Origin: a bacterium
GTDB lineage: Bacteria > Bdellovibrionota_B > Oligoflexia > Oligoflexales > CAIYRB01
Assembly: GCA_900299215.1 (NCBI GenBank)
Contig: OMIY01000382.1
Location: 10,206 to 74,205 of the forward strand
DNA length: 64,000 bases
Direction: 5' to 3'
Below the pieces are notes generated by a model. It ran no database searches. It saw only the letters and a program-made list of their open reading frames with translations, and was not told the DNA's origin. Every line of letters begins with the position of its first letter. The stretch's first letter is position 1. Below, in pieces: positions 1,324 through 56,868 of the stretch. The position numbers and the translations under genes were made by a program.

Positions 1324-2724
1324 ATGGCCACTCGACCTACATATGGTAAAATTAAGGTACGGCGGCAAATCGACCGACACCCCTTGAGGGAGTCGGGGCA
1401 TGCAATTCCTTTACGGGGTGACAAAGAATTGAAGTCCAAAAACGACGATAAATCTAAGCCAATGAGTCCGACGGTGAAAGCCTCGGTCAAGGCTACCGCA
1501 TCGTCACCGGCGGTACGCACCAACCCTCCGCAAAGTACACCAGTGCGCGGCGTCACGAGGCCACCTCAAGCTAGTCAGCCAACTCCATCTAAGCAGCCAC
1601 CGGTTGCTGCTGCGAACGAAGGGGTGGAGGAGTTTGATCTTCAAAACACACCCTCCTACAGATTGCATCATGCCTTGGCAAAGGCTAGAGGCAAAAAGTT
1701 ACTTATATGCATCAAAGGGTATCCAGATCCCGATAACATCGGTACCTCGCTCTGTTTGCAGTGGTTAGCGCGGCACTACGATATAAACACGACCATCATC
1801 CATTTTGAAGCAATCTCCCACCATGAAAACAGGGCTTTAGTTAAAAAACTTGACCTAGACATGGTGGAATACGAAAACAATTTCGACGTGTCTGGATTTG
1901 ACTATTTCGCGGTAAACGACTCGCAAAACCCCGACCTTCCGATCAAATTACCACCCGATTGCAAGTTGCTTGTGTTTGTGGATCACCACAAGGCTTTGGG
2001 TACAGTTGAAGGAGAATTTGTAGACATTCGTGAGTCTTCTGGATCAACTTCAGGGATCTACGGCGAATATTTGATTGAGGGACCGATTAATTTCCGCGGC
2101 AACTCGGTTGAAGAGAGTCGCATTGCTACGGCACTGATGCACGGGATTCGCAGCGATACCGACAATTTTGTAAACGCTCAGCCCATTGATTACAAGGCAA
2201 GTGAGTACTTTGCCCAGTTTGTCGACAAAGACCTGTTATCTCTGATTTCCCATCAGTCGATCCCAGCCAAGACCATGGACCTGACGCAGATTGCTCTGCA
2301 GCGTAAAGACATCCGGGGCACATTTATGTTTTCCGGGGTGGGTTTCGTTAGGGATGAGGACCGTGATGGCATAGGCCAATGTGCCGATTATCTGTTGCAT
2401 CGCGAAGGCATTGATACGGTGGTGGTTTATGGGGTTGTAGGTAATCAATTTATCGACGGCTCTCTCCGTACTAAGTCCCATACACTCGACCCTGACAAAT
2501 GGTTAAAAGATGTTTTTGGCGCCGATGAAGCGGGTAAGTACTATGGCGGCGGGCGCAAGGACAAAGGTGGCTTTCAGATTCCAATAGGTGTGTTCGCGCG
2601 CTGTAACGATCGAGAACTACTCTGGATTCTGATTAAAAAGACTATAGATGAGCTGTTCTATCAAAAGATTGGCATTGAAGAGGATGCAAACATTGATAGC
2701 GATCTAGCCAGCCAGAAGGGTTAA
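1324..2724 (+). CDS. DHH/DHHA1-family phosphoesterase (NrnA-like) with a ~100-aa Pro/Ser-rich N-terminal extension
   Basis: DPDNIGT and FVDHHKA (DHH motif), GIRSDTDNF, and a GGGRKDKGG stretch at the DHHA1 GGGH position. Confidence 0.7.
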   Translation: MATRPTYGKIKVRRQIDRHPLRESGHAIPLRGDKELKSKNDDKSKPMSPTVKASVKATASSPAVRTNPPQSTPVRGVTRPPQASQPTPSKQPPVAAANEGVEEFDLQNTPSYRLHHALAKARGKKLLICIKGYPDPDNIGTSLCLQWLARHYDINTTIIHFEAISHHENRALVKKLDLDMVEYENNFDVSGFDYFAVNDSQNPDLPIKLPPDCKLLVFVDHHKALGTVEGEFVDIRESSGSTSGIYGEYLIEGPINFRGNSVEESRIATALMHGIRSDTDNFVNAQPIDYKASEYFAQFVDKDLLSLISHQSIPAKTMDLTQIALQRKDIRGTFMFSGVGFVRDEDRDGIGQCADYLLHREGIDTVVVYGVVGNQFIDGSLRTKSHTLDPDKWLKDVFGADEAGKYYGGGRKDKGGFQIPIGVFARCNDRELLWILIKKTIDELFYQKIGIEEDANIDSDLASQKG

Positions 2725-3173
2725 CCCTCTGGGGTTGGGTAGTCGAGTATGAAGGTTACTGGACCATCGTTGAGTAGGTCCACCTTCATATCTGCGCCGA
2801 ATTGACCTGTCTCTACCTTTAGACCGGCCTGTTTTGTCGCCGTGACAAAATCCGTATAGATTTTATTAGCCAGGTCTGGTGGGGCAGCCTGTGTAAAACT
2901 GGGACGGCGTCCTTTGCGACAATCAGCGTAAAGTGTGAATTGACTGACAAGCAGGATCTCGCCCTCAATATCCCGGACACTTAAGTTCATTTTGCCGTCT
3001 GGGTCATTGAACGCACGAAGGTTAATTAGCTTGTCTACCAGGTAGCTGACGGCAGCCGTACCATCACTTGACTGAACACCAATCAGTACTAGCCACCCGC
3101 GCCCAATACGACCAACTATCTCAGAGTTAACCTCAACGCTCGCTTGGCTGACTCGTTGAATCACAAGGCGCAT
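2721..3173 (-). CDS. dtd: D-aminoacyl-tRNA deacylase
   Basis: MRLVIQRVSQASVEV...GWLVLIGV...SQFTLYADCRKGRRPSF, a typical Dtd sequence; 150 aa. Confidence 0.95.
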   Translation of the reverse strand: MRLVIQRVSQASVEVNSEIVGRIGRGWLVLIGVQSSDGTAAVSYLVDKLINLRAFNDPDGKMNLSVRDIEGEILLVSQFTLYADCRKGRRPSFTQAAPPDLANKIYTDFVTATKQAGLKVETGQFGADMKVDLLNDGPVTFILDYPTPEG

Positions 3174-3269
3174 TTAAATTCCTCTGCAGCTGTCTGTGGT
3201 TATTGAAACTTGCCATCGATGGCTGGGACACCTATAAAAGGTCCTCCATGATCCAGATAGGGCGTCATT

Positions 3270-3842
3270 ATGGAACAGGCTAGCTACCAGTACCACTGTG
3301 AAAAACTGAAGGAGCTCCTAACTTCGCTGGGAGAGGACCCGGAGCGGGATGGGTTGCTCAAGACCCCCGGCAGAGTTATGGACTCACTGCAGTTCTTGAC
3401 TTCTGGTTATAAAGAGGATGTTGAAAGTGTACTTACCGGCGCTCTTTTTGACGTCGATTATCAAGACATGGTTGTTGTCCGGGACATAGAAATCTACAGC
3501 ATGTGTGAGCATCATATGCTGCCCTTCTATGGTCGCTGCCACGTGGGTTATATTCCAAGGGACAAGGTTGTTGGGCTGTCCAAATTGCCACGCGTTGTTG
3601 ACATTTTTTCTCGACGCCTTCAGGTGCAAGAACGCCTCACTCACCAGATTTCGGAGGCTATTGAGCAGTACCTTAAACCATTAGGTGTTGGTGTGGTGGT
3701 GGAAGCTTACCATTTGTGTATGATGATGAGAGGGGTCACTAAACAGAACTCGTTCACTCTAACGAGCTCGATGCGAGGATCCTTCCAGAATCTTGAGACG
3801 AGAAACGAGTTTTTTAGCCTAATTAGAAGCCAAAAGTTGTGA
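3270..3842 (+). CDS. folE: GTP cyclohydrolase I
   Basis: [12 protein letters not shown] and [15 protein letters not shown] signature segments; 190 aa. Confidence 0.95.
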
Positions 3843-3845
3843 TCG

Positions 3846-4499
3846 ATGGGTATGCACCTATACACCTATGACGACCCACCAGCTGAGCGAGATATCAGCA
3901 GGGCGGTGCGTATATTGGCCGATTCCGGTGTGCTAGCTTATCCGAATGACCTCAATTGGGCATTTGGCTGTGATGCTGCGAGTGCGAAGGCTCTGGACAG
4001 GATCTATATGCTCAAGCCCACTCATCCCAGGGATCTACCGTTTAGCCTACTCTGTAGCTCTATTTCTATGGCGGCTGAGTATGCTGTTATCGATAATGCT
4101 GCTTACCGCCTGCTCCGCAAAGCGTGGCCGGGTCCATTTACGGTGCTTTTAAACGCCACCAAACAGCTTCCCAGACAGTTAAAAGACAAACGTCGAGTCG
4201 TTGGCATTAGGATACCTACAAGCAATCTGCTGCGGACTATCGTGGAGCGCTTCGGTCAACCAATCGCGACGACTTCTATTCCTCCGATCAAGCTCAAGTC
4301 TGCAAACAGCATGGATCCTCAGGCTCCGCGCTTTGGATATGAAGTGTTCGAATCTTATGGACATGCGATTGACCTCGTTCTGGACCTGGGAGCGGAATTA
4401 CCGGGGCTAGAATCCACAATTATCGATCTGACGTCGGGTCAGCCTGAAATTGTGCGATTAGGTGCGGGTGATCCTAGTCTTTTCAGTGCGGGGACGTGA
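3846..4499 (+). CDS. tsaC: L-threonylcarbamoyladenylate synthase (YrdC/TsaC family)
   Basis: YrdC-domain features: KPTHPRDLPFSLLCSS, WPGPFTVLL, GIRIPTSNLL, TTSIP, STIIDLT. Confidence 0.85.
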   Translation: MGMHLYTYDDPPAERDISRAVRILADSGVLAYPNDLNWAFGCDAASAKALDRIYMLKPTHPRDLPFSLLCSSISMAAEYAVIDNAAYRLLRKAWPGPFTVLLNATKQLPRQLKDKRRVVGIRIPTSNLLRTIVERFGQPIATTSIPPIKLKSANSMDPQAPRFGYEVFESYGHAIDLVLDLGAELPGLESTIIDLTSGQPEIVRLGAGDPSLFSAGT

Positions 4500-4506
4500 T
4501 CTTACG

Positions 4507-5130
4507 GTGAGCGAGCACATAAACCCCTTTCCGTATCCAACTCCGCTTGAAGTGGTCTTGTTGCAAGAGCTGGCGGCAGCAGGGCGGGAGTGCTACGAGC
4601 GAGGCTGGTGTCCAGGCACTGCGGGCAATTTTTCTTTGCGTGGGAAGAGAAGCCTCTCGTGGGTCAGTCGTACCAGCATAAGCAAGGCTCAGCTTAGTGT
4701 CAGGGACTTCGTTCCCGTATCATTAGAGACAGGTGACCCTGTAACCCCCGAATCGCCAAGGGCTTCGTTGGAGGCTGCGGTCCATCTTGCGATTTATCGC
4801 CTGAGTCCAGATGCGAGAGTCGTCGTACACGCTCATCCCCCATATACTGTGGCGAGAAGCGCTGTCGATGCAGAGTTTTTATTCAGAGGGGCAGAGATAC
4901 AAAAGGCCCTAGGTGCCTTGTCACATGAAGAGTCCCTAAGTATTCCGCTCATTGCAAATCCGACCAAATTAACACTCGCTCATATGCAGAGAGAGTTAGA
5001 GGCCATGACTAATTTGCGTCCTGGAGTAATTGTTCTCCGTGGTCACGGGGTCTATGCCTGGGGTGAGTCACCGGTAATGGCATTAGATCGACTTGAGGCA
5101 CTGGAGTTTCTATGTCAGACGAGCACTTGA
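4507..5130 (+). CDS. mtnB: Class II aldolase/adducin-domain protein, methylthioribulose-1-phosphate dehydratase-like
   Basis: GWCPGTAGNFSLR and VVHAHPPYTV motifs. The start is moved to the GTG at 4507, just after the tsaC stop; the track ORF starts at 4462, inside tsaC. Confidence 0.65.
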   Translation: MSEHINPFPYPTPLEVVLLQELAAAGRECYERGWCPGTAGNFSLRGKRSLSWVSRTSISKAQLSVRDFVPVSLETGDPVTPESPRASLEAAVHLAIYRLSPDARVVVHAHPPYTVARSAVDAEFLFRGAEIQKALGALSHEESLSIPLIANPTKLTLAHMQRELEAMTNLRPGVIVLRGHGVYAWGESPVMALDRLEALEFLCQTST

Positions 5131-8721: not shown

Positions 8722-9852
8722 ATGCGAGTAGATCACGACGATGATTCCCAAGTGACTGAGACCACGCAGGCGGACCTTGCGTCCCGCCGGCGATCCTTTG
8801 GGGTGAAGCTTCAACAGTTGCGGTCTCAACATGGCGTTAGTGTTGCTGCATTGGCCGAAATTACGCGAATCAGCCAAGTCTTCATTGAAGCCTTGGAAGC
8901 CGGTGCTATGGAGCGATTGCCTGGAAGGGTTTTTGGTCGAGGCTTCGTGCAAAACATAGCTAAAAACTTCGGTGAAGATCCGGAGCCATGGCTTGCCGAA
9001 TTTGCGGATGTCTGGGAGTCCACTTCAGTTCCCTCGGTGCTGAAGGTGCAGATCAAGAATAAGCCCACCAAAGATTTTTCCGATCGATTTCAGCCAATTG
9101 CCGCGCAATTAACCAGCCTGGCCCGCCGTGGCGAAATTGTTAAGATTGCATTACCAATTCTTGCCATCGTAATCGTTGGCTATCTTAGCGTCAGTCGCTC
9201 GCTGGTTCAGAACGCATGGCGGAATTTCAGTAGCCGCCATGCGGCAACCATTGTGAAGGCCAAGCCGCTCGATTTGAGGCCTGTCGATACCAATCAAAAT
9301 GTCAACGAAGGCTCCGCAGCACCAGAAGTTGGACCAAGCGTAGTTGCAAGTTCCTCTACCTTAGGGGCACTAGAAGCTCCAAAACCAACTGAAACCAAAG
9401 GTAAATTTACTTCTGGTGTCAAAGAGGAACAAATTGCTCCTGGAGCCGGAGTGAAAAATACGTCCTCCTCAAGCTCGGACGCGGCTTTAGTCGCAAAGCC
9501 CGCCACCGCCAAGTCGACTCAGGATGCAACGGTTACTACAAACATTAAAGCGGTCGAAAAAGAGACTAAGCAAACAGTGGTGGCCACCACTGAGGGGCAG
9601 CAGCAGCTGGTGATTGCTGTAACAGAGCCGGTTCGAATCAAACTTGACGTGGATCAAGGACCATCAGTTACCAGGGAATTACAGCCTGACACCTATAAGT
9701 TTGGGTTCAATAAGAAAGCAGACATGCTGATCTATGATGCAGCAGCCGTTCAAATAAGTTTCAACGGCAAAGCTCTTGGTACTTTGGGCAATAAAGGGCG
9801 CGTTCGACGCCTTAGCTTTCAAAACCAGGTTCCGCAATCCAAGTCTATGTAA
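8722..9852 (+). CDS. rodZ: RodZ-like cytoskeleton protein (HTH, TM segment and DUF4115-like C-terminus)
   Basis: N-terminal XRE-type HTH (LRSQHGVSVAALAEITRISQVFIEALE), one TM helix (IALPILAIVIVGYL), a low-complexity linker, and a C-terminal beta-domain (VRIKLDVDQGP...ISFNGKALG). Confidence 0.75.
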   Translation: MRVDHDDDSQVTETTQADLASRRRSFGVKLQQLRSQHGVSVAALAEITRISQVFIEALEAGAMERLPGRVFGRGFVQNIAKNFGEDPEPWLAEFADVWESTSVPSVLKVQIKNKPTKDFSDRFQPIAAQLTSLARRGEIVKIALPILAIVIVGYLSVSRSLVQNAWRNFSSRHAATIVKAKPLDLRPVDTNQNVNEGSAAPEVGPSVVASSSTLGALEAPKPTETKGKFTSGVKEEQIAPGAGVKNTSSSSSDAALVAKPATAKSTQDATVTTNIKAVEKETKQTVVATTEGQQQLVIAVTEPVRIKLDVDQGPSVTRELQPDTYKFGFNKKADMLIYDAAAVQISFNGKALGTLGNKGRVRRLSFQNQVPQSKSM

Positions 9853-9875
9853 TTACAGTATAAATTTTAACATCG

Positions 9876-9901
9876 GGCGCCGCAATTGCGGCGCCTTTTT
9901 G
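9876..9901 (+). terminator. Rho-independent terminator of rodZ
   Basis: GGCGCCGC-AATT-GCGGCGCC, a perfect 8-bp GC stem, followed by TTTTTG. Confidence 0.9.
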
Positions 9902-9919
9902 TATTAGTGATGGCCTAGC

Positions 9920-10161
9920 TAAAGTTTCCCCTGGAAGCTCCGAAGATAAGTTTGAAGGTGCAAACCTCGCAGGGAATAGTGGGACGAAGCTTGAGGGTCA
10001 AGTTGACCTGAGCTTCTACGGGGATGGAATGGATACTTTGGTATCCAAGGAATTGTGCGGGCCTATGATGGGCCAAATTGCCATGAGGGCGATTTAAGAT
10101 CTCCTAACTTACTACCCTCTGAATCCCAACGGCTCAAATCATGTTCGGGCCGTTGGGTTTT
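9920..10161 (+). ncRNA. Candidate standalone c-di-GMP-I (GEMM-I)-like riboswitch RNA (merRNA-like)
   Basis: GCAAACC (9960-9966), a 12-nt gap, then GUGGGACG-AAGC (9979-9990). A strong hairpin GAAGCU...GGUCAA-G-UUGACC...AGCUUC spans 9986-10016. ACGGGG at 10018-10023. These mirror the GGCAAACC / GUGGGACGCAAAGC / AGCGGGG cores of GEMM-I. A TAAAGTTT box lies at 9920-9927 and a terminator at 10125-10161. No credible ORF follows. Confidence 0.45.
10125..10161 (+). terminator. Intrinsic terminator-like hairpin inside the rodZ-panC intergenic region
   Basis: CCCAACGGC (10125-10133), a 15-nt loop, GCCGTTGGG (10149-10157), then TTTT. Confidence 0.6.
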
Positions 10162-10311
10162 AGCTTTTGGCGGCAATCGCCATGTTCCAGCCTGGTATGA
10201 GGGCGCAAAAGGCCGCAAGCTGATTGTCATAATCTGGTGTCTGCTGTACTGATACATGATTGTTTTAAGCAACAGGCATTACATTCAATGACTCTTATGA
10301 GAGTGTGAGAG

Positions 10312-11163
10312 ATGTTACCTTCCACCCTAATTTCCATCGCAGACTTAAAAGCCCGTCGGGACACCTGGGCAGCTGAAGGGCACCGATTGGCCTTTGTTCC
10401 AACAATGGGTGCTTTGCACGAGGGGCATCTCAGTTTAGTACGGGCAGCAAAGTCCGCTGCTGACCGCGTCATTGTTAGTATCTTTGTCAATCCGACTCAA
10501 TTCGCACCAAGCGAGGACTTGTCCAAATATCCCAGGACGATCAGTGCCGATTTGGAGCTGCTTGCAAGCGAAGCTGTTGACGCAGTATTTCTGCCAAATG
10601 ATACCACGATGTATCCAGAGGGTTTTCAAACCTTTGTGCATGGTAAGGGTATGGCTCTGCAATTAGAGGGTATATCGCGTCCACATCACTTTGAGGGTGT
10701 GCTCACTGTAGTCTTGAAATTGTTTAATCTAGTTCAGCCCGACATAGTTTTCTTCGGTAAAAAAGACTACCAACAGTGGCGACTCATCTCTCAAATGGTT
10801 ACGGATCTCAATCTCCCAGTTAAAGTAATTGGGTGTGAGACTGTCAGAGAATCCGACGGGCTAGCAATGAGTAGCCGAAATCGATATTTGTCTGGTTCGG
10901 AAAGACCCATTGCGGCTGCGATTTTTCAGGGTCTGGATGCAGCACGCCAACTTTATCGTCAAGGTGAGCGGTCAACAAGTAAACTGCTTGCTGCTTGCCA
11001 TTCTCAGATCACGGCTCATCCAGAACTCCTGCTTGAATACATTGAGATTAGGAGACGTCGCGATTTGAATGCTTTTGAAACTGATTTAACCGAGGAAGCG
11101 GTGCTTTTGCTTGCGGCAAAATTAGGAAAAACCCGTCTCATCGACAATATTGAACTGGATTAA
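10312..11163 (+). CDS. panC: Pantoate--beta-alanine ligase
   Basis: FVPTMGALHEGHLSLV, VSIFVNPTQF, FFGKKDYQQ, GLAMSSRN. Confidence 0.95.
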   Translation: MLPSTLISIADLKARRDTWAAEGHRLAFVPTMGALHEGHLSLVRAAKSAADRVIVSIFVNPTQFAPSEDLSKYPRTISADLELLASEAVDAVFLPNDTTMYPEGFQTFVHGKGMALQLEGISRPHHFEGVLTVVLKLFNLVQPDIVFFGKKDYQQWRLISQMVTDLNLPVKVIGCETVRESDGLAMSSRNRYLSGSERPIAAAIFQGLDAARQLYRQGERSTSKLLAACHSQITAHPELLLEYIEIRRRRDLNAFETDLTEEAVLLLAAKLGKTRLIDNIELD

Positions 11164-23922: not shown

Positions 23923-26250
23923 ATGGCTAAATATTTGGTGGTCGTCGAGTCTCCGACGAAAGTTAAAGCTCTCAAAAAATACTTAGGCAAGGACTATGAA
24001 GTTCTGGCGTCGAAGGGCCATGTGAAGGATCTTCCCGACAGATCTTTAGGTGTTGATATTGATAAAGATTTTGAGCCTCAATACGTCACCATTCCTGGCA
24101 AGGAAAAGGTGCTGCGTGAAATCAAAGCGGCAGCCGATGACGCCGAACATGTCTATCTGGCTCCCGACCCCGATCGCGAAGGTGAGGCTATCGCTTGGCA
24201 TATTGCCAGCGAAATCGGCAAGCCTGCCAGTCAGGTTCAGAGAGTGCTTATCCAGGAGATCACCAAAAAAGGTGTGCAAGAAGCAATAGGTCATCCTGGT
24301 GACCTCGATCCCAACAAATACGAATCTCAGCAGGCACGACGGATCCTTGACCGTTTAGTGGGTTACCAGATCAGCCCTCTTCTGTGGAAAAAAGTTAAGC
24401 GAGGCCTATCAGCAGGTCGAGTGCAAAGCGTAGCTGTTAGGCTGATCTGTGAAAGAGAAGGTGAGATCAAGCGTTTCAAACCGGATGAATATTGGACGAT
24501 CGATGCGGCATTGGACGCCAAAGTTCCACCCACAATCATTTCGCGATTGGTGTCGGTAGATGACCGCAAACTGGGCAAGGATTTAAAAATTGATAATGGC
24601 GACCTTGCAGCCGCTATTAAAAAGAGAATTTCAGCAGGTACCATCGAAGTCAAATCGGTGCAGCAAAGGGAGCGAAAGAAAAATCCGGTACCTCCGTTTA
24701 CGACTTCAAAGCTGCAGCAGGAAGCGTTTCGTAAGCTTGGCTTTAATGTTAAACGAACAATGTCGGTGGCTCAGAGCCTTTATGAGGGTGTAGATATTGA
24801 GGGCGAGGGGCCCCTAGGTCTCATCACTTACATGCGTACCGACTCAACGCGTATCGCCGATGATGCATTGACCGCAGTTCGAGGTTTTATCGAGACTAAG
24901 TTTGGTGCGGAAAACCTGCCGGAAAAGCCCGTCGTCTATAAGTCAAAGAAGTCTGCGCAGGACGCTCACGAAGCTATCCGCCCCACCACTCTCGACTACC
25001 CACCAGATCGCGTTGCTGATGTTTTAAGCAAAGAGCAGCTTTCGCTCTACCGTTTGATTTGGAATAGATTTGTTGCATGTCAAATGAAACCCGCCGTTTA
25101 CGATCAACTATCCGTCGACTTCGCTGCTGATAGCGGCAAAGTGGTTCTGCGGGCTACTGGATCTAGGCTAGTATTTAAGGGATTCTTGGAAGTCTACGAA
25201 GAGGGCCATGACGAAGAGCGTAGACGTGCAGACGAAGAAGAGGATCCAGAGCAAGTCAGTGAAGGCATCTTGCCTCCACTGAAGGAGGGCGACAAAGTTA
25301 AATTAAATAATGTCGACCTTCAGCAGCATTTTACTCAACCACCCCCACGCTTTAACGAATCGTCTCTGGTGAAAGAGCTCGATGAAAAAGGTATAGGCCG
25401 TCCTTCAACCTATGCCACGATCTTGTCAACCATCGTAGATCGAGGCTACATCAAAAAAACTGAGAACCGGTATGAGCCCACAGTACTAGGTGAAAAGGTT
25501 AATGAGCTCTTAGTGCAGGCCTTCCCCGACGTCTTGAGCGTTCTATTTACTGCTGGCATGGAGGAGAGCTTAGATAGGGTTGAAGAGGGCACCGCGCAAT
25601 GGCGTCAGCTTCTAAAAGACTTTTACTCTCCTTTCGCTTCCAAAGTTAAAGAAGCGGAAGGTTCCATGGTCAATGTCAAAGCTTCATCAGAGCCGACCGA
25701 TATCGTTTGCGATCGATGTGGCAGTTTCTTCCATATCAAATGGTCCTCGCGCGGAGAGTTTCTCGGCTGCTCAAACTATCCTAAATGTCGGGCAACGCGG
25801 GAATTCGTTCGGGATGCTGACGGCAAAATCATTGTCAACCAACCGAAATATACAGGTGATAAATGTCCCAAGTGCGGTAAGGACATGATACTGCGCAGCG
25901 GCAGATATGGTGACTACATCGCCTGCCAGGACTATCCTCAGTGTCCTACCGTGAAAAGTCCTCAATCTGACGTCAAGTGCCCTGAGTCGGGGTGCTCCGG
26001 CGGACTTGTGCCCCGACGTACTAAGGTAGGAAAGAACTTCTGGGGTTGCACCAATTATCCTGGGTGCCAGTATGCAGTCTGGGATAAGCCTATACCCAAA
26101 CCTTGCCCAGCTTGTAGCTTCCCAATTTTAACTGAAAGAACCACGAAAAAAGATGGCACTCGCTACATCTGCCCGTCGTGTAAAGCGGTCACTGAGGCGC
26201 CAGAGTCCTCTTCGCTAGAGTCTGCTTCTGAATCAGATACTGACGTTTAA
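23923..26250 (+). CDS. topA: DNA topoisomerase I
   Basis: Toprim (VVVESPTKVK, APDPDREGEAIAWH), active-site region GLITYMRTDS, and several C-terminal Cys4 zinc ribbons. Confidence 0.95.
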   Translation: MAKYLVVVESPTKVKALKKYLGKDYEVLASKGHVKDLPDRSLGVDIDKDFEPQYVTIPGKEKVLREIKAAADDAEHVYLAPDPDREGEAIAWHIASEIGKPASQVQRVLIQEITKKGVQEAIGHPGDLDPNKYESQQARRILDRLVGYQISPLLWKKVKRGLSAGRVQSVAVRLICEREGEIKRFKPDEYWTIDAALDAKVPPTIISRLVSVDDRKLGKDLKIDNGDLAAAIKKRISAGTIEVKSVQQRERKKNPVPPFTTSKLQQEAFRKLGFNVKRTMSVAQSLYEGVDIEGEGPLGLITYMRTDSTRIADDALTAVRGFIETKFGAENLPEKPVVYKSKKSAQDAHEAIRPTTLDYPPDRVADVLSKEQLSLYRLIWNRFVACQMKPAVYDQLSVDFAADSGKVVLRATGSRLVFKGFLEVYEEGHDEERRRADEEEDPEQVSEGILPPLKEGDKVKLNNVDLQQHFTQPPPRFNESSLVKELDEKGIGRPSTYATILSTIVDRGYIKKTENRYEPTVLGEKVNELLVQAFPDVLSVLFTAGMEESLDRVEEGTAQWRQLLKDFYSPFASKVKEAEGSMVNVKASSEPTDIVCDRCGSFFHIKWSSRGEFLGCSNYPKCRATREFVRDADGKIIVNQPKYTGDKCPKCGKDMILRSGRYGDYIACQDYPQCPTVKSPQSDVKCPESGCSGGLVPRRTKVGKNFWGCTNYPGCQYAVWDKPIPKPCPACSFPILTERTTKKDGTRYICPSCKAVTEAPESSSLESASESDTDV

Positions 26251-26256
26251 AAAAAT

Positions 26257-26287
26257 AGAGCCTCGTCGGAGTTGCCGACGAGGCTCT
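26257..26287. terminator. Bidirectional intrinsic terminator between the convergent topA and aspS genes
   Basis: AGAGCCTCGTCGG-AGTT-GCCGACGAGGCTCT, flanked by an A-run upstream and T-rich sequence downstream. Confidence 0.8.
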
Positions 26288-26308
26288 AATGCTTTTGCTC
26301 TGAAAATC

Positions 26309-37348: not shown

Positions 37349-37424
37349 TGGTCGGGCCGGCGAGATTCGAACTCACGACCTCACGCACCCCAAGCGTGCG
37401 CGCTACCAACTGCGCTACGGCCCG
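37349..37424 (-). tRNA. tRNA-Pro (anticodon GGG), CCA encoded
   Basis: The reverse complement CGGGCCGTAGCGCAGTTGGTAGCGCGCACGCTTGGGGTGCGTGAGGTCGTGAGTTCGAATCTCGCCGGCCCGACCA folds as a cloverleaf. The anticodon loop is TTGGGGT. Confidence 0.9.
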
Positions 37425-48799: not shown

Positions 48800-50554
48800 T
48801 TGGGGTTAATAGTGCCTATCGCAGTCAAAATTGAGATCGGCGTCGTGCTCACCATTGTTGTGGTGCTGTTGGCACTTGCCGTTGTGTTTATTTTTGCTGC
48901 GCTGTGGCAAGTCGCTAACGTGCGCGGCTTGAAGGCACGGGGCCGTCGTCGGCGGATTCCAGGCTCTGGCGATCAGCGTTCAAGTGATCGCCGGCGTAAA
49001 TTCTCACGGATTGAGAGAAAATTGTTTCAGGAGGCTCAGCATTTTCTTGAGAACGGAAAGGTACAGCCAGCTGCAGCAATACTTGAACAGCTTTCGATGC
49101 AACGAGAGGCCATTCAAGTCTTGGAGGATCACGGATTCATTCATGATGCCGCGAAAATTCTGATGCGAATGCAAAGGCACAATCGGGCCGGTGTGGTGTA
49201 CGCAAGACATGGTATGTGGGAAAATGCAGCTCAGTGTTTTAAGATGGCAAATATGCCTGCAGAGGTTGCGAAATGCGCGCGAGAATTTGGTGATACTGCC
49301 CTAGCATGTGAGTACTTTGAGAAGGCCGAGCGATATGGTGACGCAGCGGAATGTGCTGAGGAGCTAGGCGATAATTTGCGAGCTGCGCGACTTTATTTGA
49401 AGAGTTCCAACCAGGCAAAGGCAATGAGCTGTTTTAGCAAAGTAGTTGCTAAAAGCGGGGCCTCAAAAACAACTGATTTGCGTTCCTCTGAGTTACAAGC
49501 AATCGCGGCTTATGTCACGGAGGGTCGTGGTGATGGCAACTTAGCACGGTTGCTCCATGCAAACGATAAATTGCTGTCTGTGATTCAAAAGTTACTAGGT
49601 GCCGGCATGGCTGGGCAGGTGAAGGAAATACTCACCGCAATCAAGGTCGATATCATTCCTCAAATAATGGCGGAATTAAATTACTCTGATGAAAGCGCAG
49701 CGATTCTCGCTGATGTCTTATCCAAATTAGATAGGCATCAGTATGCTGGGATGATTTATGAGCAAATGATGTTATTCGATCGTGCTGCGGCCGCATTTGA
49801 AAGAGCTGGTGATTTGTCGCGAGCTAATTACTGTCGTGAGCGGGCCGGGTTACCATCGAAGCCGATTAAGGCATCGGTTGATAATGAGGCAACACATGTG
49901 GTTCAACCGACGCCTTCACGCCCCGAGTCAAAGCCATCGCGTTCGATTGCAAATTCGAGTTCTCCTAGGGTTGAGTTTGCTCTCGCGGCAGTTACCGAAG
50001 TTGGTCGACCGAAGGGCGTTGTAGCAGCGGCTGTACCAGCAGTAGCTGAGTTTGTTCCACCGCCCATTCCTGTGCCTCCGGCCCAGCCGCCGCCTTCCGC
50101 AGAGGACTATGGCCAATCTGCATTCGTGAAATCGGCACTTTGCAGTGACCTTAGCTTTGATCAGTCACAGGCTTTATGGGACATCGGTGTTTCCCAGGTT
50201 TATAGAGCTGGAGAGTCGATTCTTGATTACAACGGCGAGCCTCGGGGTATTTATGTGGTGTTGCGCGGTCAGATCAGTTGTTATCGCCGTTACGGCGAAA
50301 AAGATGCGTTTATAGATCAACTTGGAGCAGCTGATTCCTTTGGGGAACTCTGGTTGTTAGCTGAAAACCCAAGTGCAGTTCAGTTTGTCGCACTTCGGGA
50401 CGTGGAGATCCGCATCGTCGAGCGAGCTGCTTTCCTGCAGTTGCTGGAAAGGGATTCGACAATTGCGTGCAAGCTCTACAAAAGATTTGCCATGAAATTG
50501 CTGGATAAATTGTTAAATCAGCGATCTGACAGGAAAAACCCATTGGCCTCCTGA
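48800..50554 (+). CDS. Membrane-anchored helical-repeat protein with a C-terminal cyclic-nucleotide-binding domain
   Basis: N-terminal TM helix and Arg-rich stretch; about 19-aa Ala-rich helix repeats (G-x4-AA-x2-F/Y-x2-A); Pro-rich linker; cNMP-binding signature FGELWLLAENPSAVQFVALRDVEI. The start could instead be the GTG at 48812. Confidence 0.6.
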   Translation: MGLIVPIAVKIEIGVVLTIVVVLLALAVVFIFAALWQVANVRGLKARGRRRRIPGSGDQRSSDRRRKFSRIERKLFQEAQHFLENGKVQPAAAILEQLSMQREAIQVLEDHGFIHDAAKILMRMQRHNRAGVVYARHGMWENAAQCFKMANMPAEVAKCAREFGDTALACEYFEKAERYGDAAECAEELGDNLRAARLYLKSSNQAKAMSCFSKVVAKSGASKTTDLRSSELQAIAAYVTEGRGDGNLARLLHANDKLLSVIQKLLGAGMAGQVKEILTAIKVDIIPQIMAELNYSDESAAILADVLSKLDRHQYAGMIYEQMMLFDRAAAAFERAGDLSRANYCRERAGLPSKPIKASVDNEATHVVQPTPSRPESKPSRSIANSSSPRVEFALAAVTEVGRPKGVVAAAVPAVAEFVPPPIPVPPAQPPPSAEDYGQSAFVKSALCSDLSFDQSQALWDIGVSQVYRAGESILDYNGEPRGIYVVLRGQISCYRRYGEKDAFIDQLGAADSFGELWLLAENPSAVQFVALRDVEIRIVERAAFLQLLERDSTIACKLYKRFAMKLLDKLLNQRSDRKNPLAS

Positions 50555-56791: not shown

Positions 56792-56868
56792 GGTGGGGTA
56801 GCTCAGCTGGTTAGAGCGATGGATTCATAACCCATAGGTCGCGAGTTCAAGTCTCGCCCTCACCACCA
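56792..56868 (+). tRNA. tRNA with a CAU anticodon (Met; Ile2-lysidine not excluded), CCA encoded
   Basis: GGTGGGGTAGCTCAGCTGGTTAGAGCGATGGATTCATAACCCATAGGTCGCGAGTTCAAGTCTCGCCCTCACCACCA folds as a cloverleaf. The anticodon loop is TTCATAA. Confidence 0.9.

Follow-up and report, generated by a model that had tools for sequence, protein, structure and literature searches.

A 64,000-nucleotide (nt) stretch of contig OMIY01000382.1 (positions 10,206 to 74,205; GenBank assembly GCA_900299215.1) from an Oligoflexales bacterium, referred to here as the window, contains a 459-nt gap at positions 9853-10311, between a rodZ-like open reading frame (ORF; 8722-9852) and panC (10312-11163). This gap probably holds an independent gene, which would be transcribed by RNA polymerase carrying sigma-28 (FliA), would end at an intrinsic terminator and would produce a trans-acting structured RNA of approximately 208 nt belonging to an undescribed family. 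An initial annotation of the gap had described a discrete structured non-coding RNA gene with a sigma-28-type promoter, its own terminator and no conserved ORF, and had identified it as an orphan cyclic di-GMP riboswitch (c-di-GMP-I, or GEMM-I) comparable to merRNA of Bdellovibrio bacteriovorus. The description is largely supported by the comparisons reported below, but the identification is not.

Conservation of the gap between the rodZ-like gene and panC

Relatives of the locus were found by a PanC protein search, which gave a graded series from 83% down to 54% identity, and their contigs were fetched. The homologous loci are denoted by L-numbers (L087, L088, L090, L091, L094, L099, L102, L103, L104, and L105). 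An initial PanC scan of genome contigs was swamped by universal PanC motifs and returned many phyla with no orthologous gaps, the best match being 52% identical; 80 panC loci of other phyla from that scan served instead as negative controls in the search for an RNA linked to panC. An exact search for the PanC of the window retrieved no record.

The neighborhood was syntenic throughout the relatives, in the order S41 peptidase, tetratricopeptide repeat protein, rodZ-like gene, gap, panC, plsB, and rsgA. The gap stayed 453-461 nt long in relatives with PanC identities as low as 68%, and a near-invariant block corresponded to window positions 9919-10165. Within this block, the domain closed by the helix named P3 below (approximately 10056-10110) showed 69-95% nucleotide identity in every comparison, always higher than panC (59-71%) and the rodZ-like gene (45-66%). 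A pattern search with the invariant core retrieved eight metagenome contigs only, all with the identical context. A covariance model (CM) built from 11 distinct sequences scored 251 bits on the window over 9919-10174 and located the element in three more distant genomes (56-60% PanC identity; 63-126 bits), one of which is an 'Oligoflexales bacterium' metagenome-assembled genome (MAG) at NCBI. In total, the RNA occurs in 14 distinct lineages, all uncultured and Oligoflexales-like, the most distant having 56% PanC identity. The same model gave no hit in the 80 panC loci of other phyla and none elsewhere in the window, and the RNA was not found on viral contigs. The gap element is conserved and not a product of chance, because the gap length and the near-invariant block are kept while PanC identity falls to 68%, and because the element recurs in 14 lineages.

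The gap had been called highly structured in the initial annotation, and the segment 9905-10165 indeed folded better than shuffled controls on both strands (z = -3.5 on the plus strand and -4.9 on the minus strand). The dismissal of its ORFs as noise was also borne out: these ORFs, of 53-87 amino acids (aa), had no Pfam match and were not conserved. A protein-coding gene in the gap was ruled out by the missing Pfam match, non-triplet indels and compensatory pairs. At L090, a gene caller had placed a 149-aa ORF (2573-3022) that spans the RNA and overlaps the start of panC; having no Pfam domain and no conservation in relatives, it is probably a spurious call prompted by the long gap. A dispersed repeat or miniature inverted-repeat transposable element was likewise ruled out, since the window has a single copy and viral contigs have none.

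Secondary structure and covariation

A consensus fold was obtained by RNAalifold and tested on a MAFFT alignment (A3) and on a 14-sequence alignment (A4); pairing partners that had been slid and 500 shuffles served as controls. In A3, 93.1% of the cells were paired, compared to 30-57% when the partners were slid, with 19 double-change pairs compared to 5-9. The 14-sequence alignment gave 94.9% paired cells (30-56% slid) and 27 double-change pairs (6-10 slid). None of the 500 shuffles reached these values in either alignment. The plus strand is the RNA strand, as set by 102 G.U cells, with 94.9% paired cells on the plus strand and 79.9% on the minus strand. A minus-strand RNA was rejected on this ground despite the better single-sequence z-score of that strand. 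The minimum free energy fold of the 208-mer gave back the consensus helices, eight in number, which are arranged as follows.

9954-10161, plus strand: predicted transcript of approximately 208 nt, with its start placed 7-9 nt past the -10 box and its end at the U-tract of the terminator
9956-9967, plus strand: 5' hairpin, AGG-UGCAAA-CCU (helix 1; 95% paired, 2 double-change pairs)
9972-9983 with 10108-10117, plus strand: P1, 5' strand GGG..AGUGGG and 3' strand CUUACU..CCC (helices 3-5; 88-94% paired)
9986-10016, plus strand: P2 hairpin, GAAGCUUGAGGGUC-AAGUU-GACCUGAGCUUC, with a conserved GA bulge (helix 6; 96.4% paired)
10020-10025 (GGGGAU) with 10099-10104 (AUCUCC), plus strand: P3, which closes the most conserved domain (helix 7; 100% paired)
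10030-10047, plus strand: P3a, a variable hairpin within P3, UGGAUAC-UUUG-GUAUCCA (helix 8; 7 of 7 pairs with double changes)
10056-10074, plus strand: invariant GUGCGGG junction and P3b hairpin (10060-10074), GGCCU-AUGAU-GGGCC (helix 9; 100% paired)
10075-10095, plus strand: P3c hairpin abutting P3b, AAAUUGCC-AUGAG-GGCGAUUU, with an A-N-G-A-G loop (helix 10; 97% paired)
10099-10117, plus strand: P3 3' strand (AUCUCC), invariant CUCCUnAC and P1 3' strand, as aligned in A4

Double changes reached even the most conserved helices, P3, P3b, and P3c. In P3, GGAGAU/AUCUCC is replaced by GGAGAG/CUCUCC at L104 and the helix reads GGGGU/ACUCC at L103. P3b has four double-change pairs (GGGCC/GGCC replaced by CGUCC/GGACG at L104, and GGUUC/GAGCC at L103), and P3c reads AAUUACC/GGUAGUU at L103 and GAAUCGCC/GGCGGUUC at L090, with GCC/GGC exchanged for ACC/GGU. 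P1 shows compensatory changes at alignment pairs 71/223, 72/222, and 73/217 of A4, and P2 has six double-change pairs (GGGUC/GACCU to AGAUC/GAUCU). The outer parts are more tolerant. The 5' hairpin varies among lineages in loop and length, its stem being longer at L094, where it reads GGUCC-UUUG-GGGACC, and at L099. Loss of P3a from three lineages (L094, L103, and L104) and shortening of P2 in three (L103, L104, and L105) leave a minimal core of approximately 110-120 nt.

Predicted promoter and terminator of the RNA

Both promoter boxes claimed in the initial annotation are present upstream of the fold where it had put them, with a layout kept in 14 of 14 lineages.

9920-9927, plus strand: -35 box of sigma-28 (FliA) type, TAAAGTTT; TAAAG(T/A)(T/G) in 14 of 14 lineages, with TAAAG invariant
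9939-9946, plus strand: -10 box of sigma-28 type, TCCGAAGA, 11 nt after TAAAGTTT; CGA core invariant, with GCCGATCC at L099 and GCCGATCG at L104
10125-10161, plus strand: candidate intrinsic terminator, CCCAACGGC...GCCGUUGGG followed by UUUU; a G+C-rich 9-bp hairpin
9875-9896, plus strand: strong predicted upstream terminator, GGGCGCCGCAATTGCGGCGCC followed by a T-run; 9 pairs, 8 of them G-C, ending the rodZ-like gene

The consensus for sigma-28 is TAAA-N15-GCCGATAA. The sequence immediately before the fold reads TAAAG(T/A)(T/G)-N12/13-nCCGA in all 14 lineages, with nTCGA and nACGA as variants, and the distant members come closer to the consensus (GCCGAT at L099 and L104). The spacer is fixed in length (12 nt after TAAAGTT; 13 at L099) and unconserved in sequence. 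The boxes are best read as a promoter and not as part of the RNA, because they are conserved, the spacer between them is free in sequence and they have no pairing partner. Under a stricter sigma-28 pattern, this site was the only one in the window, yet it is not significant by itself (0.33 expected); a loose pattern applied to all loci gave chance matches everywhere and was uninformative. In Bdellovibrio, Karunker et al. reported attack-phase promoters with TTAAG-N16-CCGATA in 92 of 140 cases, three small RNAs (sRNAs) among them (PMC3627812), a consensus that the -35 box described here also matches, and sigma-28-dependent sRNAs are established in Escherichia coli and Campylobacter (PMC10578931, PMC11187230, PMC4626219).

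The 9-bp terminator with a T-run described in the initial annotation is present as CCCAACGGC/GCCGTTGGG plus TTTT at 10125-10161. Its stem covaries in L087 and L088 (CCCACCGGC/ACCGGUGGG) and is replaced by unrelated stems in L091, L102, L099, and L103, while the core stays constant. A terminator-like hairpin was recognized in approximately 11 of the 14 lineages, most of them with a U-tract. On the other side, the predicted terminator of the rodZ-like gene would isolate the RNA gene from upstream transcription.

Comparison with c-di-GMP riboswitches and merRNA

The identification as a divergent GEMM-I aptamer, serving as an orphan c-di-GMP sink like merRNA, had been based on short strings, and these are real. 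GTGGGACGAAGCT (9979-9991), the hairpin at 9986-10016 and ACGGGG (10018-10023) are present as quoted, and GGTGCAAACC is present at 9957-9966, one base off the position first given. G(U)GCAAACC, GUGGGACG.AAGC, and ACGGGG occur in the order of the Vc2 and merRNA cores, and the RNA shares with GEMM-I (RF01051) the strings GCAAACC, GUGGGACG, and CGGGG in identical order and a hairpin-rich junction. A free-standing RNA with a motility-type promoter in a lineage related to Bdellovibrionota would also suit such a sink.

The match in order and spacing to Vc2, however, proved to be a resemblance at the level of letters. The c-di-GMP-I and c-di-GMP-II models (RF01051 and RF01786) matched nothing in the window at the gathering threshold and nothing in the 600-nt query 9800-10400 at E ≤ 10. 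Likewise, 13 homologous loci gave no match, with none even at E ≤ 10 in L099 and L103. The compensatory changes that had been anticipated in homologous gaps were found, but in helices unlike those of GEMM-I, and the covariation-supported fold is incompatible with the GEMM-I mapping. GGUGCAAACC forms a local hairpin (GGU-GCAA-ACC) and is not a GEMM-I P2 strand; its loop is non-GNRA in most lineages. The P2 hairpin of GEMM-I (GGCAAACC... / ...GUGGGAC with a GNRA cap) is absent, and the 12 nt between the strings 'CAAACC' and 'GUGGG' (UCGCAGGGAAUA) form no hairpin. In the Vc2 structures, the conserved J2/3 junction ACGCAAAGC holds the intercalating adenine. The supposed counterpart reads ACGAAGC in the window and AUGGGGC, ACGAGC, ACAGGC, or ACGGAC in relatives; GACGAAGC is one strand of a covarying helix, with AUGGGGC in the closest relatives, and the 'ACG-AAGC' bases belong to the paired 5' strand of P2, the helix with six double-change pairs. 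Likewise, the quoted ACGGGG overlaps the P3 strand GGGGAU, which pairs with AUCUCC.

A pair of mutually exclusive helices had also been put forward as the switch, with 9934-9940 pairing to 10010-10016. This helix exists in the window sequence but is not conserved: 63.6% of its cells were paired, 54 of 500 shuffles did as well, and there was no excess covariation. Its upstream partner, GAAGCUC (9934-9940), belongs to the variable spacer of the promoter and precedes the likely start of transcription.

The likeness to merRNA was examined with the merRNA and APsRNA1-7 sequences taken from Fig S1 of PMC3627812. Comparison of these with the family profile (nhmmer --max, E ≤ 100) returned nothing, and blastn-short against the Bdellovibrio sRNAs returned 7-9-mers only. 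Moreover, merRNA itself is not listed with a FliA promoter (PMC3627812). The merRNA of B. bacteriovorus is 445 nt long and contains a bona fide GEMM-I aptamer (GGCAAACC-GUCG-GAAA-CGGC-GGGACGCAAAGC; PMC3627812), whereas the RNA described here is approximately 208 nt long, has no GEMM-I match and folds differently. The two are alike in being free-standing structured RNAs of Bdellovibrionota-related lineages with no conserved ORF and a conceivable binding or sponge role. The proposed merRNA-like architecture is retained as a loose analogy to attack-phase RNAs, and a merRNA-like identity is not. On these sequence comparisons, the GEMM-I reading is already refuted as regards family membership, and a c-di-GMP sink of this class is scarcely credible.

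No other Rfam family was matched by the RNA, either in the window at the gathering threshold or in the homologous loci. The weak matches in 9800-10400 at E ≤ 10 (ar15, tracrRNA, and GcvB) were set aside as terminator-driven, minus-strand or low-score noise, as were those in divergent members (rsmX and NEAT1; Na+ riboswitch, Srn266, and snR78).

Possible mode of action

In the mechanism that we propose, sigma-28 RNA polymerase would start at approximately 9954 from TAAAGTTT-N11-TCCGAAGA. The transcript would fold into the 5' hairpin and a P1-closed junction that carries P2 and the P3 domain, with its abutting P3b and P3c and many invariant unpaired bases, and transcription would end at the intrinsic terminator at 10125-10161. 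The RNA would then be made with the late flagellar (motility) programme, which is the 'attack-phase' programme in Bdellovibrionota, and would act in trans. Binding of a protein or a small ligand, for titration or sensing, seems more likely than simple antisense pairing, because what is conserved is a compact core of several helices rather than a short seed in single-stranded form. The hairpins P3b and P3c (10060-10095) abut directly, and their 5-nt loops, AUGAU and AUGAG, resemble each other (consensus A-N-G-A-N); a partner that binds as a dimer, or a paired tertiary contact, would match this layout. A CsrA sponge was rejected, the GGA motifs being unconserved across the family.

A classical base-pairing sRNA was also considered, in which mRNAs, such as those of flagellar or cell-envelope genes, would be paired either by the conserved CUCCU (10101-10105), which resembles an anti-Shine-Dalgarno sequence, or by some other exposed stretch. 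The sigma-28-type promoter with a terminator and the invariant CUCCUnAC are in keeping with this idea, and sRNAs of this kind have precedent in E. coli and Campylobacter (PMC10578931, PMC11187230). However, CUCC lies inside the fully paired P3, whose partner strand is equally invariant or covaries, and the approximately 110 nt of conserved compact structure go far beyond the needs of a seed. We consider base pairing with mRNAs improbable.

The P1-P2-P3 core might instead represent a new class of ligand-binding aptamer, a speculative idea that we rate as rather improbable. Such a reading fits because of the compact junction with invariant unpaired nucleotides, the abutting A-N-G-A-N hairpins and the persistent position before panC. 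It may take either of two forms. In the first, by analogy with the role proposed for merRNA, the RNA may be a free-standing sensor or sponge whose production is confined to the sigma-28 phase (motile or attack) and which has a different ligand. In the second, the RNA may be an ancestral riboswitch for the coenzyme A (CoA)-themed cluster of panC, plsB, and acyl-CoA dehydrogenase. We are not aware of any reported class of natural riboswitch for coenzyme A.

Relation of the RNA to panC

The claim that the RNA has no attached ORF stands for the RNA itself, which contains no conserved ORF, but panC lies 150 nt downstream on the same strand. The locus L103, from an Oligoflexales MAG (GCA_015232735.1), separates the two. 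There the RNA (1966-2181) lies beside the rodZ-like gene, panC is at 4919, and this panC has no RNA copy of its own. A cassette of three genes, for a carbamoyltransferase, a DUF5989 protein and an SxtJ-like one, is inserted between the RNA and panC (2400-4798) and amounts to a natural uncoupling of the two.

Several points weigh against a free-standing, trans-acting sigma-28 RNA. Apart from L103, the RNA is directly upstream of panC and co-oriented with it in 13 of 14 lineages; this position is weak evidence either way, all sampled genomes sharing the synteny. At L094 the G+C hairpin has no U-tract, and at L104 and L105 no terminator is recognizable; these three loci are the most compact, with approximately 35-100 nt left before panC (L094, 2880-3000; L104, 9905-10000; L105, 9880-10000). 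Read-through into panC, or a leader function, is therefore possible in these three lineages. The ORFs of the window include no flagellar or fliA gene, and the neighborhood is one of housekeeping functions. In addition, we infer the dependence on sigma-28 and both transcript ends, the start site and the 3' end, from sequence. Action in trans is a proposal, and a protein or ligand as the partner is suggested by the style of conservation.

Some of the same features would fit a leader or riboswitch that acts in cis on the gene string panC-plsB-rsgA-acyl-CoA dehydrogenase, in which the core would be an aptamer (for example, CoA- or pantothenate-related) and the next hairpin its expression platform. 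This explanation can draw on the position before panC, on the very short spacers of the three lineages with no clear terminator, and on the CoA or acyl-CoA theme of the downstream genes. The conservation is also aptamer-like, with a multi-helix junction and invariant unpaired bases, and a hairpin follows close behind the core.

Nevertheless, a leader would always lie immediately upstream of the gene that it regulates, and at L103 three unrelated genes intervene. An expression platform would show conserved pairings in which terminator and antiterminator exclude each other, and none was found between core and terminator: the stems of the terminator are exchanged entirely around an unvarying core, and the switch helix first proposed is unconserved. 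When the 3' part was folded without the core, the terminator still formed, and the 3' strand of P1 showed no consistent invasion; on these two results, there is no conserved antiterminator. The pan motif of Rfam (RF01749) had no match at E ≤ 10 in 9800-10400, the RNA was absent upstream of panC in the 80 genomes of other phyla, and a biosynthetic operon would be an odd place for a promoter of the sigma-28 type.

A separate conserved block, which is not part of the RNA, also stands before panC, downstream of the terminator.

10223-10256, plus strand: conserved block before panC, ATTGTCAT, approximately 10 nt, CTGTAnnnnTACA(G), seen in alignments A1 and A2

The block contains a short palindrome, CTGTA-N4-TACAG, and may alternatively be read as TTGTCA-N17/18 with an extended -10 element. 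It is kept in most lineages, with L094 and L105 retaining only a GGTAT(T/G)GATA remnant. A sigma-70 scan made no call at 10223-10256; judged from its sequence, the block may be the promoter or an operator of panC. A free-standing gene is favored over a panC leader because of the uncoupling at L103, the lack of conserved switching helices, this separate block and the absence of the RNA in other phyla. Overall, a leader of panC appears unlikely, somewhat less so in the compact loci.

Genomic context in the window

The rodZ-like ORF was recognized by HTH_25 in Pfam (7.8e-15), with a weak, sub-threshold match to RodZ_C (E = 0.0018). The product of panC matched Pantoate_ligase (3e-102), and plsB and then rsgA follow it. 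The initial annotation had named the gap the longest non-coding one in the window, and it is indeed the largest unexplained gap, the remaining ones being ORF-filled or tRNA-bearing. Two tRNA genes, at 37352-37424 (minus strand) and 56792-56865 (plus strand), account for the two remaining large gaps (439 and 367 nt), and nothing else in the whole window matched Rfam 15 at the gathering threshold. No GGDEF, EAL, or PilZ domain was seen among the ORFs of the window, nor any c-di-GMP gene. The only cyclic-nucleotide-binding domain among these ORFs is a C-terminal cNMP_binding domain (9.5e-14) in a 584-aa protein encoded at 48800-50554. Elsewhere, a 21-nt inverted repeat with A- and T-run flanks (26249-26295), between the convergent genes topA and aspS, is a probable bidirectional terminator.

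Comparison with known systems and significance

The RNA invites comparison with the sRNAs that depend on sigma-28, namely MotR, FliX, UhpU, and FlgO of E. coli, CJnc230 (FlmE) and CjNC1/4 of Campylobacter, and APsRNA3, 6, and 7 of Bdellovibrio, which are likewise small non-coding transcripts of the flagellar sigma factor. These share with it the promoter layout TAAA-N15-(G)CCGA, and the RNA described here would end at a predicted intrinsic terminator. There is, however, no homology in sequence or structure, and neither the family profile nor BLAST found anything in the Bdellovibrio sRNAs. The E. coli sRNAs are derived from untranslated regions and use short seeds with Hfq, whereas the RNA described here lies between genes, is larger and keeps a compact fold with multiple junctions across its lineages.

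With regard to GEMM-I, the covariance model failed, the shared strings stand in other structural contexts, the J2/3 letters vary and the P2 hairpin is missing. A likeness to riboswitch cores in short strings can thus mislead, since the c-di-GMP assignment failed both the covariance-model and the covariation tests. Another parallel may be the candidate structured RNAs of unknown function that the Weinberg and Breaker surveys reportedly drew from comparative genomics. Like these orphan motifs, the RNA was recognized via conservation and covariation and has a complex fold, invariant junction nucleotides and a narrow phylogenetic range. It differs from most of them in its clearly recognizable alternative-sigma promoter, and it is not in Rfam 15.

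These results add a new and well-supported structured-RNA family, with 14 lineages and 27 covarying pairs, from a poorly studied and mostly uncultured branch related to the predatory Bdellovibrionota. The promoter of flagellar sigma-factor type provides a built-in hint to the timing of its expression. When an RNA is large and has a complex fold and a near-invariant core, it is usually a ribozyme, a riboswitch aptamer or a scaffold that binds proteins, and each new family of this kind is a candidate for new biochemistry.

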